A DNA stretch of 32,000 nucleotides from an archaeon (GTDB lineage Archaea > Asgardarchaeota > Thorarchaeia > Thorarchaeales > Thorarchaeaceae), in assembly GCA_024275415.1 (NCBI GenBank), contig JAJRZD010000085.1:1727-33726 (forward strand). Reading direction: 5' to 3'. The notes beneath the pieces are model-generated. The model saw nothing but the letters and a program-made list of their open reading frames with translations, did no database searches and was not told the DNA's origin. Shown one piece after another: positions 950 to 5,852 of the stretch (its first letter is position 1; each line of letters begins with the position of its first letter). The translations under genes were made by a program, and so were the position numbers.

Positions 950-1624
950 CTACAGGAGTCCCTGAGGTCTTGGATTGAATTTAAGGGAAACATATCTTGC
1001 ATCGTCAGATTCGTGCAATGATGACGCCTCGCGTCTATAACGCTCATATTCGTCCTTGCACTTGCCTTCGAGCTGGAACTTTGTGTATTTCAGTCTGATG
1101 CCATCCTTGTCCAGTTTCTCGATAAACTCCATTGGTATCAAGACATCTAGGTCGGGCAAGACCCCTATGCGTTCCAATAGTTCTGCAAATGGGTTACCAC
1201 CCGCCACAAGCCATGGTGACCCATCGATATCAAACCAGATGTCAGAAACCTTGCCGGTGTCCATGCCTTCCGAGTCGATTATCTTAAGCTTTGAGAGCTC
1301 TGAGAGTCGCATGTCTTTCTCTGTGATGGTTCCTTCATCAAGGGTCGTCTTGAGATTATCCGCATCCTCAATAATGACAGCATCCTGTGTGATCTGAGAA
1401 ATGCAATCTAGCTGGAACACTGGATCAATGTCTGGGCGGAGACCTATGGATTCCAAGAATTCTTCAATCCTGCCACCACCCAACACTATGGACTTCAGCT
1501 TGATTGTATCATCAGCATATGTGATGATGAAATCATTCACAGTGCCTGCTTCTTTGTTCTTTGCATCTATTACTTTCTTTCCCATCAAATGACTAAATCT
1601 TATTCCGCAGCATTGAAAAGGCAT
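950..1624 (-). CDS. Tandem PRC-barrel domain protein
   Basis: Two similar halves: IRFSHLMGKKVIDAKNKEAGTVNDF...GGGRIEEFLESIGLRPDID and MRLSELSKLKIIDSEGMDTGKVSDI...GGNPFAELLERIGVLPDLD, each with the PRC pattern L-x-G-x-x-V-x-D-x-x-G-x-x-x-G-x-V-x-D. Start moved from 1672 to the ATG at 1624, which has a GAGGTG RBS just upstream. Confidence 0.8.
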   Translation of the reverse strand: MPFQCCGIRFSHLMGKKVIDAKNKEAGTVNDFIITYADDTIKLKSIVLGGGRIEEFLESIGLRPDIDPVFQLDCISQITQDAVIIEDADNLKTTLDEGTITEKDMRLSELSKLKIIDSEGMDTGKVSDIWFDIDGSPWLVAGGNPFAELLERIGVLPDLDVLIPMEFIEKLDKDGIRLKYTKFQLEGKCKDEYERYRREASSLHESDDARYVSLKFNPRPQGLL

Positions 1625-1695
1625 GAATACCACCTCATTAACAATTGTGAACTCATATATAAGTTCATTCATCTAGCATTGGGACAATAGTCGTC

Positions 1696-2504: not shown

Positions 2505-3203
2505 CTATGTTGGCAACAGGTGCGCAGTGTTGCAATGCTCACAGACTACTGCTTCCTCCCAGTATTCTGGAAGGGGCAATGGAGCTCCACAATTCTGACA
2601 TTTTAGCTCCTTGAGGTCTGCTCGTTCTTCGGGTGTGATATCAAGCCTGAATACGTTCTCAGCAACATCACTGATTCCCTTTCCAATCTTGGCTGCTGCA
2701 CGAGCTATTGCATTGGTTTCTGTATCTGTCAGGTTTCCAAGACCAACAGATTTGAAGAATGTGTCTATCGCTGCGCCCACTTTACTGAGGAACGCCCCAA
2801 TGGTTCGGCCTCGTTTCCAATCTCGAATCGCAGCAATATGTACTTCGATCAACTCTTCGTCGGGATGTCCAGGTATCTGATATCCCTTCTTCCATGGCGT
2901 CTTCTTGTCATGCGTTGGAGAGAGGATTTGACCACAGCTGGGACATTCAAGACGGTATTCTTTAGAGAAGAACCCTTTCTTGTGCTCTTTCTCACCATGC
3001 TTGTACCAGCAACGCTTGTGAGCTAACTTACTACAATTCGGGCACGGGAACAGATAGAACCGTTCAGGTTTATGTTTGATTGTCCTGCCCGCGACATTAG
3101 GGACATATGCAAGATCCTCAGTCTTGTAAGACAATAGGTCTCGCCCGCAAATGAAGCATGGTCTGTCCTTGAACCTGTCCATTTTGTCTGCTGTGAGCTT
3201 CAT
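2505..3203 (-). CDS. Zinc-finger protein: N-terminal C4HC3 (PHD/C1-like) finger, central helices, C-terminal zinc ribbon
   Basis: C16-x2-C19-x34-C54-x2-C57-x4-H62-x2-C65-x21-C87-x2-C90, plus C-terminal CQNC-x15-CEHC. GAGG RBS upstream. Confidence 0.75.
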   Translation of the reverse strand: MKLTADKMDRFKDRPCFICGRDLLSYKTEDLAYVPNVAGRTIKHKPERFYLFPCPNCSKLAHKRCWYKHGEKEHKKGFFSKEYRLECPSCGQILSPTHDKKTPWKKGYQIPGHPDEELIEVHIAAIRDWKRGRTIGAFLSKVGAAIDTFFKSVGLGNLTDTETNAIARAAAKIGKGISDVAENVFRLDITPEERADLKELKCQNCGAPLPLPEYWEEAVVCEHCNTAHLLPT

Positions 3204-3236
3204 CGTGAATCCTCAAATAGAGGTGGACGCCGAGTG

Positions 3237-3252
3237 CTTTTAAGGTATTTTG
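3237..3252 (-). promoter_or_regulatory. Putative BRE/TATA promoter for the zinc-finger gene
   Basis: Minus strand CAAAATAC-CTTAAAAG ends about 34 nt upstream of ATG 3203, the usual archaeal spacing for a short leader. Confidence 0.45.
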
Positions 3253-3272: not shown

Positions 3273-3686
3273 CTATCTACTTTCCAAAACTGCACGAATC
3301 GAGTCGGCTGCCTTCTCCAGTGTCTTCCACACTTTCTTGTCGTCAATTCTTTTGAAAAAGAGGAATCTTCCGTTTCGGATTTCGGCCCCAATCCTAAACC
3401 ATCGGTTCCTAACCTTGAACTCGTGGACTGTGATGGACACACCTGACCCTTTGATTGTCGAGATTCGTGGATGATCATACCCCAGATTCTCATTTACCCT
3501 GCGCGATGTATCCGAAAGCAGAGATATCATTGCAGCCAATCTATCCCTCTGGACTAGATCTCTAGCTCTTCCCGCAACAACAAGACCTTGCTCATTGGTC
3601 ACGACGCAGTTCTTGAATGCGTAGCCAATCTCGCTCTCAAAGTCCTTGAGCACAAGGTCTAGCTTCTCAGATTTTCCCAAGCTCAT
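3273..3686 (-). CDS. Roadblock/LC7 domain protein (divergent)
   Basis: Helix, then NCVVTNEQGLVVA, helix DRLAAMISLLSDTSRRVNENLG, beta strands and a terminal helix, matching roadblock topology. ORF track start is GTG 3695; ATG 3686 follows an AGGTG RBS. Confidence 0.8.
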   Translation of the reverse strand: MSLGKSEKLDLVLKDFESEIGYAFKNCVVTNEQGLVVAGRARDLVQRDRLAAMISLLSDTSRRVNENLGYDHPRISTIKGSGVSITVHEFKVRNRWFRIGAEIRNGRFLFFKRIDDKKVWKTLEKAADSIRAVLESR

Positions 3687-3697
3687 GATTGTCACAC

Positions 3698-4159
3698 CTA
3701 TGTCATGGACTCCTCATGTAACCTGACTTCCCAAAGGCGAACGACCTCCCGGATTTCCTGTCTCAAGTTCTCAATCTCGAATGATATCAAACCGAGCTCC
3801 AAATCACGTGGGAAGATGCAAGCCAGCATTACATTCTCAGCGAGATGCTTCAAAAGGATCGAAAACGAAACCATGCCTGCATCTTCTGCTTCAATTATTA
3901 CCTGTCCAAAGCTCTTAGTGTTATTGACAAGTTTGATGAAGTCTTCTGAGATCGTGATAAGTCCAGCTGACATGCTACTGATTACAGTTTCAATGTTCTC
4001 AGGCATTGATTCATTGTTGTGTCTATGACCTAATACATATCCATCGACAGTGAAGACTGTAAGGGCCCAGACTGGTAATCTGCGGTTAAATTCCATCAGG
4101 AGCTTTCTAATCTCCAATACAGGGGGAATTATGCTCTTCTCTTGATACAACGTATTCAC
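3698..4159 (-). CDS. Roadblock/LC7 (MglB-like) domain protein
   Basis: ALTVFTVDGYVLG, SSMSAGLITISEDF, QVIIE and a C-terminal LGLISFEI helix. Starts 3 nt after the GTPase stop; alternative start TTG 4150 after AGGTGA. Confidence 0.82.
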   Translation of the reverse strand: MNTLYQEKSIIPPVLEIRKLLMEFNRRLPVWALTVFTVDGYVLGHRHNNESMPENIETVISSMSAGLITISEDFIKLVNNTKSFGQVIIEAEDAGMVSFSILLKHLAENVMLACIFPRDLELGLISFEIENLRQEIREVVRLWEVRLHEESMT

Positions 4160-4162
4160 CTA

Positions 4163-4831
4163 TCATATCTGCTGAAATGGGAGTGTGGACTCTTCGGGTG
4201 TCCTAGAAGTACGATTCATGAGGACACCCTCTATTTTTCTGAGAAGCAGAATCAATGCATCTTTGCATGACTCTTTATCCTTCGCTGACATCCCTATGGT
4301 TTCTCTCACTCCAAGCCATGTAGAGACTTGGAATGGATAAGCACTTTCAGGCAAGTCCTGCTTGTTGGCAATCACCACCATAGGCAGGTTACCAAACGCA
4401 GCTAACGTTTCTGCTAGAATGGCAGATGCATCACCTATCATTGCTGGATCCGAAGAATCCACAATTAGCAGTACACCATTGGAGTTAATGCGCATTGTGT
4501 CACGAACGAACTTGAAATGCAGCTGCCCTGGTACCCCACGGAGTTCTACCTCCTTTGCGAGCCACGCATAGTACTCGTCTCGTTCTCTCAGGAACTCGTT
4601 CTTCGGAATGATCAGACCTGCTGATTCCGCTGACTTCCTTGCCCATATGACTCTGCCAAGGTCAAATCCTGTGGTAGTCGTACTCTCTTCCCCACGATAT
4701 TGATCTCGCAGCTTCCGTTCGACCGATATCGTATCTGGGTCTAGAGTATGAATCATCGTTGTTTTTCCGGCCTGAAACGGGCCAGTCACATAGACTTTAT
4801 AGTCATATGATCGGAGGTTATGCACTGCCAT
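4163..4831 (-). CDS. Small GTPase, MglA/CvnD-like (prokaryotic Ras-like) family
   Basis: G1 GPFQAGKT, G2 region STTTTGFDLG, G3 GVPGQ (no Asp, as in the GTPGQ family), G4 NKQD, G5 MSAK. Flanked by roadblock genes. Confidence 0.9.
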   Translation of the reverse strand: MAVHNLRSYDYKVYVTGPFQAGKTTMIHTLDPDTISVERKLRDQYRGEESTTTTGFDLGRVIWARKSAESAGLIIPKNEFLRERDEYYAWLAKEVELRGVPGQLHFKFVRDTMRINSNGVLLIVDSSDPAMIGDASAILAETLAAFGNLPMVVIANKQDLPESAYPFQVSTWLGVRETIGMSAKDKESCKDALILLLRKIEGVLMNRTSRTPEESTLPFQQI

Positions 4832-4880
4832 CCTACATTCTTCCTATTCTACTGTTTTCAAAGTCAGCCGTCGTCTTGAC

Positions 4881-5243
4881 TTACAGGATATCCTCCACAC
4901 TCGCTACTGCCTTTTCCATCTCAAAGTCGATGAGACCGATTTTCGCTTCTTTGGGCGCAGTGGCAATCAAAGAGGAATTTGAGAGCTTGCGGACAATGAC
5001 TGTTTTGGACTCGCCCTCGATCGTGATAGTCTTTGGCTTACCGGATTTCAAGGCTGCACCCACTCTGGTTCCAATGGAAACCAGTGCAGCAGCCATGGCT
5101 GAGATAGCCTTGTCATCAACACCTTTATGGAGTGCAGCGACCATCATCTGGCCTCTGTCACTGACCAATGCGCAACCATCGACTTCACTGTCAGCTTCGA
5201 GTTGCTTGAGTATCGTTTCGAGTTTCTTGATTTTTGCACTCAT
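4881..5243 (-). CDS. Roadblock/LC7 (MglB-like) domain protein
   Basis: Canonical pattern GCALVSDRGQMM, DKAISAMAAALVSIGTRVGAAL, TITIEG, AKIGLIDFEM. Start moved to ATG 5243 (GGAGGT RBS at 5250-5255); the extension to 5324 overlaps another ORF. Confidence 0.9.
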   Translation of the reverse strand: MSAKIKKLETILKQLEADSEVDGCALVSDRGQMMVAALHKGVDDKAISAMAAALVSIGTRVGAALKSGKPKTITIEGESKTVIVRKLSNSSLIATAPKEAKIGLIDFEMEKAVASVEDIL

Positions 5244-5254
5244 CCTTATACCTC

Positions 5255-5377
5255 CTATTTCTCGTAATGTGGGCAAGTGTCTTTTTCTTCGGCTGGGACA
5301 TAGAGCTTCTTCTTTTCGCACCAAATCAGCCCTGCAGCGTTAGATTCACCTGCATGTTTACAATCACAACTTGCCAT
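5255..5377 (-). CDS. 40-aa Cys/His-rich microprotein, probable metal-binding; not in the ORF track
   Basis: Translated by hand: MASCDCKHAGESNAAGLIWCEKKKLYVPAEEKDTCPHYEK*. ATG is 7 nt after the V4R stop with GAGGGAG upstream, and its TAG overlaps the RBS of the next roadblock gene. Confidence 0.7.
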   Translation of the reverse strand: MASCDCKHAGESNAAGLIWCEKKKLYVPAEEKDTCPHYEK

Positions 5378-5384
5378 ATCTCCC

Positions 5385-5852
5385 TCACTCCAAAGACACA
5401 GTGAAGATTGATGCGTTCAGCTCTGGTCTGTAAAGAGCGGATTCGACGACACAGGTCTTACCGAGTTTCTCATTCAGTGATGCATATAGAATAGCCATCA
5501 TCGGACAGGGAGGGATTTTTGTGACATCATCACCGCGGATTATCTTCGTGGCTGATGAGTAGATACACTCCCCGATATCGATTTTTATCCTGTCTTCACT
5601 CACTTCCAAGATTTCGCAGCGTTGAACAGCACCAGATTTCTTGATTTCCTCTTTAAATGACTCCACGATAGACTGTACATCATTCCCTTTGATGTCTAAG
5701 CCGAGAGATCCCAATAGCCCTTTAGCCTCGTTCTGAAAGGCAGATGCTATTTGCGTCCAAATTAAAGGTATGTTAAGTCCCATATTTGTCATAGCTGATG
5801 CAACTGCAACCATGACGGCATTGCTAGCGTCCATGAGCTGTCTGTATTCCAC
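5385..5852 (-). CDS. V4R / MetOD1-like small ligand-binding domain protein
   Basis: Helical N-terminus, then EILEVSEDRIKIDIGECIY...PPCPM...terminal beta strands, the V4R-superfamily pattern with conserved Cys. GTG start 9 nt after an AGGAG RBS. Confidence 0.68.
   Translation of the reverse strand: MEYRQLMDASNAVMVAVASAMTNMGLNIPLIWTQIASAFQNEAKGLLGSLGLDIKGNDVQSIVESFKEEIKKSGAVQRCEILEVSEDRIKIDIGECIYSSATKIIRGDDVTKIPPCPMMAILYASLNEKLGKTCVVESALYRPELNASIFTVSLE

Follow-up and report, generated by a model that had tools for sequence, protein, structure and literature searches.

A probable RING-like zinc protein of Thorarchaeia encoded behind a Ras-like GTPase operon

Does the gene for a small zinc-finger protein that lies shortly downstream of a Ras-like GTPase operon in a genome of the Thorarchaeaceae encode an effector of that GTPase, or a protein of another kind that has come to lie there? 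The locus that raises this question is part of a stretch of 32,000 nt (hereafter the window; assembly GCA_024275415.1, contig JAJRZD010000085.1, positions 1,727 to 33,726), in which an open reading frame on the reverse strand (2505..3203, -) translates into a protein of 232 residues, here called P0001. A preliminary description of the window took its N-terminal finger to be PHD- or C1-like, and proposed that it couples the GTPase to the membrane. The analysis reported here points elsewhere: we hold with good confidence that P0001 is a RING-like protein and that it is not an effector of the neighbouring GTPase. The explanation as a whole, i.e. a three-zinc RING-like adaptor of Thorarchaeia that is not a canonical ubiquitin ligase (E3), is favoured with less assurance, and its mechanistic part, an adaptor function independent of any ubiquitin-conjugating enzyme (E2), is put forward tentatively, as a proposal that may well turn out otherwise.

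An invariant set of zinc ligands

The C4HC3 core of the protein (2934..3158, -), read directly from the translation, has the ligand series C16-x2-C19-x34-C54-x2-C57-x4-H62-x2-C65-x21-C87-x2-C90, with the codons of C16 and C90 at 3158-3156 and 2936-2934, respectively. This is exactly the pattern, C-x2-C-x34-C-x2-C-x4-H-x2-C-x21-C-x2-C at 2934-3158, given in the preliminary description, and the sequence strings quoted there were likewise all located in P0001: FPCPNCSKLAHKRCW corresponds to residues 52-66, YRLECPSC to residues 83-90 and KKGFFSK to residues 75-81. The C-terminal zinc ribbon noted on the same occasion (residues 200-230; 2514..2606, -) is formed by C202-x2-C205...C221-x2-C224, and was delimited by its invariant columns and by Pfam matches to DZR and other zinc-ribbon entries, every one of them below threshold. 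All 12 ligands, eight in the N-terminal core and four C-terminal cysteines, are invariant among 32 orthologues of 46-80% identity, and they are invariant again in 22 locus-derived orthologues. This puts the pattern far beyond chance. Further residues invariant in the 32 orthologues are F17, G20, W66, W104, Y108 and P111, and H223 within the ribbon is invariant too. Apart from its ligands, the N-terminal domain features a hairpin in loop 2 with the basic/aromatic tip KKG(F/W)F, and its extension with W104, Y108 and P111 is conserved as well. The three zinc ions that had been anticipated for this protein remain a reasonable expectation, the modelled finger accommodating two and the ribbon providing a putative third site.

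Between finger and ribbon lies a Gly/Ala-rich linker (residues 135-149; 2757..2801, -) of low model confidence, with a predicted local distance difference test score (pLDDT) below 50 in the full-length model. It overlaps the string GAFLSKVGAAIDTFFKSVG (residues 136-154), previously described as amphipathic; the string is present as quoted, but the strongest helical hydrophobic moment of P0001 is found at residues 163-187. Chlorosome_CsmC is matched weakly by 8 of the 32 family members. Ribbons like that of P0001 also end other Thorarchaeia proteins, among them one of 634 residues (L054:2449-4350 (-)) and one of 225 residues (L056:1281-1955 (-)), the latter of which also matches a bacterial PH domain. 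They have in common the pattern K-x-I/L-x-C-x2-C-G-A/G-P/A-L ... C-E/D-H-C-G/N-T, and the ribbon may be a module common to several Thorarchaeia proteins. A Pfam scan of the other proteins with a similar C-terminal ribbon gave no clue to function, and a feature search of the ESM Atlas with residues 123-232 returned no informative match.

How widely is the family distributed? The clusters at 90% identity that a word-indexed search yielded number about 100; they are all of full length and, where named, nearly all labelled Thorarchaeota, and an exhaustive phmmer search of 1.84 billion representatives returned only one cluster at 50% identity and a C-terminal fragment. Of the 87 genomes of the class, 68 have the gene (22 of the 24 of high quality), as do 16 of 17 genera, and it is nearly always a single copy per genome. 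As far as sequence similarity can tell, the family is confined to Thorarchaeia, relatives elsewhere being undetected. A literature search found no paper on it.

Some irregularities in gene models were observed. The start codon is TTG or GTG instead of ATG in most orthologues (L008, L012, L013, L015 and others), aligned with M1 of P0001. In one genome (G023:C3:88800-89478) the gene is present in two overlapping frames covering residues 3-87 and 86-232, which represents a frameshift or an assembly error. Some orthologues were flagged as having stops inside; in L031, the one checked, the flagged codon is the natural stop codon, and selenocysteine or a broken gene was thereby ruled out for this orthologue.

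Fold of the N-terminal domain and its relation to other zinc fingers

The N-terminal RING-like domain (residues 1-131; 2811..3203, -) was defined from an AF2 model, structural comparison with VIA-align, searches of the ESM Atlas and profile comparison with hhalign. The AF2 model of full-length P0001 has a pLDDT of 83, with residues 135-149 disordered. That of residues 1-134 reaches a pLDDT of 92.1 and a predicted template modelling score (pTM) of 0.85, and features a central helix (63-70) beginning at H62, in the manner of RING fingers, two beta-hairpins, and flanking helices at residues 5-11 and 123-131. When these models were compared by VIA-align with 48,161 representative solved chains, the best 50 matches were in both cases all RING or U-box E3 domains (Z 3.2-4.2), and the alignment often spans the entire target, as with 3lrq (77/82 residues), 5eya (TRIM25, 72/76), 8i3x (APIP6, 60/60) and 2bay (Prp19, 56/56). 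The solved RINGs that match best include those of TRIM25, RNF168, Rad18 and BRCA1/BARD1, which form pairs by way of flanking helices. PHD, C1 and FYVE chains are not among the best 50 for either model, distant similarity to them still being possible. A shape search of the ESM Atlas superposed a 62-residue bacterial Prok-RING_1 cluster over 54 residues with a root-mean-square deviation of 2.4 and, by the row of that match, a template modelling score of 0.67, and the feature search of the same resource returned that same cluster. Prok-RING_1 (PF14446) is also the best match in Pfam: it is found at E <=0.01 in 29 of 32 family members (best 3.6e-8), and scores 24.2 bits with full-length P0001 and 19.8 bits with residues 1-134, both below its cut-off of 29.1.

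A relation at the level of profiles was obtained within the Asgard archaea. The comparison set consisted of 14 canonical RING fingers, found above cut-off with Pfam zf-RING_2 in five other Asgard genomes. All 14 follow the motif C-x-(I/V)-C-x(11-12)-C-P-x-C-x4-H-x2-H-L-x2-W-x6-C-P-x-C, and the N-terminal profile of the P0001 family aligned to them by hhalign with a probability of 88%, P 2.8e-6 and a score of 35.8, against scores of at most 15.8 and P of at least 0.03 for 30 column-shuffled controls. P0001 has in common with these Asgard RINGs the eight ligands, the C-P-x-C-x4-H-x2-(H/C) block, a first pair C-x-(I/V)-C and a last pair C-P-x-C. It differs from them in having Cys, not His, as ligand 6, in its longer loops (34 versus about 12 residues for loop 1, and 21 versus about 10 for loop 2), in a three-residue shift of the Trp (W66), which stands one residue after ligand 6 instead of four, and in the addition of the conserved extension, a helical region and the zinc ribbon. 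To judge from models and profiles, a divergent RING of the Asgard type is the reading that suits the finger best. In the arrangement that we propose, residues 1-131 would form such a finger flanked by short helices, with C16/C19 and H62/C65 holding one zinc and C54/C57 and C87/C90 a second, followed by the flexible linker, a small helical region and the C-terminal ribbon. The Asgard RINGs themselves (L059-L072) have C-x2-C as the second pair and four residues before the His, versus the textbook C-x-H-x2 of eukaryotic RING-H2 fingers, and several of them carry an additional C-P-x-C-G upstream.

The PHD/C1 subtype put forward in the preliminary description is not borne out by these comparisons, in view of the VIA-align matches and the hhalign alignment, and the broader part of that claim stands, namely that the finger is of the two-zinc cross-brace type of the RING/PHD superfamily. 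A histone or peptide reader of PHD type, and neither an adaptor nor a ligase, would account for the C4HC3 order and for the C-x2-C-x(4-5)-H-x2-C block that PHD fingers share with P0001. OBERON-type PHD fingers appear with weak scores in the Foldseek search of AFDB (E ~0.1) and in the atlas lists, and PHD_4 and PHD_NSD are matched below threshold by 3-5 of 28 members. The four residues before the His had been taken as a mark of PHD fingers as opposed to RING variants; since the Asgard RINGs have the same C-x2-C-x4-H spacing, however, it cannot separate PHD from RING. This corrects a rule of thumb, in that a "PHD-type" x4 spacing before His is normal in Asgard RING fingers. A Trp two residues before ligand 7 marks PHD fingers, and P0001 has no such Trp. 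It has the central helix in its model, and it is matched above threshold by no PHD entry. With PHD chains also missing from the best 50 structural matches, a PHD-type reader is very improbable.

The likeness to C1 domains was found wanting at both ends of the motif. The C1 pattern is H-x12-C-x2-C-x13/14-C-x2-C-x4-H-x2-C-x7-C, and the fingers of PKC type, the Raf cysteine-rich domain and rabphilin-type fingers share with P0001 an H-K-R-C-like block. P0001, by contrast, has no His 13 residues before C16, its loop 1 comprises 34 residues, and it ends in x21-C-x2-C in place of x7-C. Related bacterial clusters bear the automatic UniProt name "Phorbol-ester/DAG-type".

A further possibility is that the cysteines form independent sequential zinc ribbons, which might bind nucleic acids or associate with ribosomes, as the automatic names DUF1610, S27E and RPC12 of the Joint Genome Institute would imply. 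Many weak zinc-ribbon matches in Pfam agree with it, HVO_2753_ZBP being matched by 23 of 28 N-terminal domains, and small zinc-ribbon proteins of the ribosome turn up in Foldseek with E 0.2-0.5. Yet these zinc-ribbon matches are all non-significant; a confident model with a helix from H62 and end-to-end superposition on RING/U-box domains would be unexpected for sequential ribbons; and the C-x2-C-x4-H-x2-C-W block agrees with the Asgard RING motif. We therefore give sequential ribbons a slight chance.

Several observations weigh against the RING assignment and have to be set beside those above. No Pfam model of RING, PHD or C1 domains matches the family at its curated cut-off, zf-RING_2 giving no match on P0001, and the C-terminal ribbon supplies part of the Prok-RING_1 score. 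The hhalign alignment to the Asgard RINGs is limited to ligand pairs 2-4. The structural Z values of at most 4.2 are low, as is usual in small domains, and the cross-brace pairing of ligands is suggested by superposition on RING domains, not by the geometry of zinc sites. Foldseek, a comparison that the preliminary description had recommended for telling these fold classes apart, gave no match in PDB at E <=0.001 with either model; in the AFDB clusters it found the family itself first, followed by weak RING-CH, OBERON-PHD, RING and C1 rows. Sequence searches of PDB, with the single protein as well as with the N-terminal profile, gave matches at chance level.

Taken as a divergent RING-like family, P0001 and its orthologues are new inside a known kind. 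The preliminary description had given PHD, C1 and FYVE cross-brace fingers as eukaryotic by general opinion; Pfam does contain RING families of prokaryotes, Prok-RING_1 (PF14446) and Prok-RING_2 (Burroughs, Iyer and Aravind 2011, as cited in PMC4506424), and RING fingers are known from Asgard archaea.

The GTPase operon and a promoter-like box

The Ras-like GTPase operon reported next to the finger gene is indeed present, with a GTPase of 222 residues and two Roadblock/LC7 proteins encoded upstream and in the same orientation, the gene for P0001 following 69 nt downstream. Is this linkage conserved? Searches by tblastn with the window proteins covered 29 loci of other genomes of the class, four same-genus genomes (68-80% identity) included, with an upstream flank of at least 999 nt in 27 of them. 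GTPase or Roadblock genes were found upstream of the RING-like gene in 0 of the 29, and the locus of the window's own genome was the sole match with the GTPase and Roadblock proteins. No GTPase was seen in gene maps around six orthologues either, the 80%-identical one among them. The nearest GTPase homologues, of 60-68% identity in G018, G003 and G005, are located on other contigs or at positions far from the RING-like gene. Because the GTPase genes adjoin it only in this genome, the RING-like protein is judged not to be a GTPase effector, and the adjacency, as comparison of the loci indicates, is peculiar to one genome.

Upstream regions of the gene provide a second clue. A BRE/TATA-like (B recognition element and TATA box) sequence, AAAATACCTTAAAAG (3237..3251, -), is kept in five same-genus genomes with the consensus AAAATACCTT(A/T)3AG about 34-35 nt upstream of the start, in flanks that are otherwise unalignable, and GAGG (3211..3214, -), Shine-Dalgarno-like and 7 nt before the ATG, does not vary among these five genomes either. 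A TATA box belonging to the gene itself, which the preliminary description had mentioned as a caveat to its own proposal, is thus matched by a conserved promoter-like box. AAAATACCTTAAAAG is a candidate BRE/TATA element and may act as a promoter; together with GAGG, it fits a promoter and a ribosome-binding site of the gene's own, retained whatever lies upstream. The gene would then constitute a separate transcription unit, and its place behind the GTPase/Roadblock operon would reflect a rearrangement restricted to this genome.

What would a PHD/C1-like membrane-binding finger that couples the adjacent GTPase to the membrane have in its favour? In this genome the gene does follow the Roadblock/GTPase genes in the same orientation, the basic/aromatic KKG(F/W)F tip and the Gly/Ala-rich linker could contact membranes, and C1_1 is matched weakly in 6-7 family members. 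To this must be opposed the adjacency in 0 of 29 other genomes, even within the genus, and the presence of GTPase homologues elsewhere in those genomes; the conserved promoter-like box of the RING-like gene; the missing C1-defining features, leading His and x7-C ending; and best structural matches among which C1, FYVE and PHD chains do not occur. The preliminary description had itself named a lack of conserved linkage to the operon as evidence against an effector; at the level of the family this refutes the proposal, and we regard such a function as extremely improbable. A tempting lead is thereby removed, as a conserved GTPase-to-zinc-finger module is not present here. The RING-like protein may conceivably contact membranes with the tip of its KKG(F/W)F hairpin, a possibility that the results neither favour nor oppose.

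Within the operon, the GTPase gene (4163-4831, -) has Arf and ATP_bind_1 matches in Pfam, and the Roadblock/LC7 proteins, also recognised by Pfam, have their genes at 3273-3695 and 4881-5324 (-). For another small protein, encoded at 3698-4159 (-), Pfam gives no match. The GTPase cluster as a whole occupies 3273-5852 (-) of the window and comprises a 155-residue protein, a Roadblock protein, the GTPase and two more small proteins, one of them Roadblock. In related genomes, GTPases homologous to that of the window occur at two or three further loci, and the cluster gives the impression of being one among several paralogous modules.

The ubiquitin system and the conserved downstream genes

If P0001 is a RING-like protein, the partners with which it might act become the central question. 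The E2 family UQ_con (PF00179) is detected in 144 of about 152 Asgard genomes outside Thorarchaeia versus 1 of 48 Thorarchaeia-family genomes, and zf-RING_2 in 5 of 5 other Asgard genomes versus 0 of 31 Thorarchaeia genomes. The sole Thorarchaeia match to UQ_con, in G076, is weak (E 3.2e-5) and below cut-off. In the genome of the window, UQ_con was not found, nor were Prok-E2_A, Prok-E2_B and UFC1, a positive control existing for UQ_con only, and the ubiquitin family PF00240 was not found there either. A passage in Hatano et al. 2022 (PMC9192718) describes Thorarchaeota as seemingly without true ubiquitin homologues. Because Thorarchaeia have no detectable E2, no canonical RING and, according to this source, no ubiquitin, we infer an adaptor that does not depend on E2.

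This contrasts with the Asgard RINGs, which belong to operons for ubiquitylation together with the ubiquitin-activating enzyme (E1) and E2, and in G087, for example, the RING (1063093-1063224) and the E2 (1062389-1062763) are separated by about 330 nt. A functional E1/E2/RING cascade from an uncultured archaeon was described by Hennell James et al. 2017, as cited in PMC9192718. The profile kinship of P0001 to such RINGs would be in keeping with a genuine E3 ligase, operating with an unrecognised E2-like enzyme or with an E1-only system for conjugation of ubiquitin-like proteins (Ubl) in Thorarchaeia. Such a role also fits the conservation in the family of the usual E2-contact positions, I18 in C-x-I-C, P88 in C-P-x-C, and W66. 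However, W66 is displaced relative to the Asgard RINGs, as described above, and the E2 and ubiquitin families are undetected in this genome. The Prok-RING_1 family is described as having Ubl or JAB components in its neighbourhood. No Ubl, E1 or JAB gene was seen around the orthologues of P0001 in the six gene maps, and P0001, while resembling Prok-RING_1 in fold superposition and best Pfam match, stays below the cut-off of that family. A genuine E3 ligase is, in our estimate, unlikely, with a chance that is nonetheless worth bearing in mind.

As an E2-independent protein-protein adaptor, the finger could act together with two proteins whose genes are co-conserved with its own, one of 100 residues and one with PRC-barrels; it might be a relic of an ancestral Asgard ubiquitin system, with the KKG(F/W)F tip and the W104/Y108/P111 extension as candidate binding surfaces. 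RING-like folds as interaction modules have precedents in the C-terminal RING-like domain of alpha-COP (PMC4678705) and the U-box-like domain of IFT172 (PMC13290226), both non-catalytic; these proteins are unrelated to P0001, and the analogy is one of use. The conserved order of genes in Thorarchaeia is the RING-like gene, the gene for the 100-residue protein and then that for the PRC-barrel protein. The second directly follows the RING-like gene in 27 of 29 other genomes. The third, encoding a double PRC-barrel protein of about 228 residues, is found downstream in 23 of these 29, and contig ends account for four of the six exceptions. This conserved three-gene neighbourhood supplies concrete candidate partners. 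In the window, the PRC-barrel gene (950..1672, -; 240 residues, Pfam PRC 4.2e-14) is the only member of the downstream pair that is left. A GNAT acetyltransferase gene (1696-2355, -; Pfam) stands where close relatives all have the gene for the 100-residue protein (together with an open reading frame of 74-89 residues), which means that this genome has undergone remodelling both in the interval between the RING-like and PRC-barrel genes and on the upstream side.

The adaptor proposal meets difficulties of its own. The E2 families covered by the search were PF00179, PF14457, PF14461 and PF08694; the E2-contact positions are conserved, as already mentioned; and the absence of the linked 100-residue gene here means that the partnership is not obligatory, unless a paralogue on contig 9 substitutes for it.

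The 100-residue family is restricted to Thorarchaeia, with 80% mean column identity, an invariant SPREVY at its end and no Pfam match. Each genome examined has two such paralogues, one linked to the RING-like gene (e.g. L005:7794-8096 and L008:5481-5783, both +) and one distal, of about 55% identity to each other, and the genome of the window has the distal one only, on contig 9 (G000:C9:53085-53366; L009:1495-1785). A feature search of the ESM Atlas matched the 100-residue protein, with a score of 0.93, to a cluster that has Pfam Gelsolin in 28% of its members. Pfam itself finds no gelsolin domain in it, a profile search of PDB, where the ProGel and 2DGel structures of PMC7444086 were expected, returned no gelsolin chain, hhalign against 12 gelsolin domains of Thorarchaeia gave a probability of 1.3% and P 0.039, and the PF00626 matches in four Thorarchaeia genomes sit on genes other than this one. 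A gelsolin-like nature of the protein, unconfirmed by Pfam, PDB profile or hhalign, is a lead only. A predicted complex between the RING-like and 100-residue proteins, computed without controls, scored 0.00, which is evidence in neither direction.

It is tempting to combine these elements into a scenario which we regard as speculative, and doubtful in its entirety: after loss of ubiquitin, E2 and canonical RINGs, Thorarchaeia may have retained one strongly conserved but remodelled RING finger. Working without E2, it would provide the zinc scaffold of a module peculiar to the lineage, the other subunits being the 100-residue protein, possibly very divergent gelsolin/cofilin-like, and the protein with two PRC-barrels, and the module might be located at the membrane or the cytoskeleton. 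If true, this would be a natural case of a RING finger repurposed once its pathway was lost. What stands is an uncharacterised family, near-universal in Thorarchaeia, with a probable RING-like finger in the one Asgard class that apparently lacks ubiquitin, E2 and canonical RING, and this bears on the gain, loss and reuse of parts of the ubiquitin system in the archaeal relatives of eukaryotes.

The surroundings of the RING-like gene in six other genomes include, besides the genes for the 100-residue and PRC-barrel proteins, a His_Phos_1 gene, a gene for a 1200-residue protein and PPDK-like genes. In distant genomes (L001, L002, L004, L005 and L008), the protein of about 1200 residues, which has no Pfam match, and a divergently transcribed His_Phos_1 phosphatase, neither of which is encoded in the window, are located upstream of the RING-like gene.

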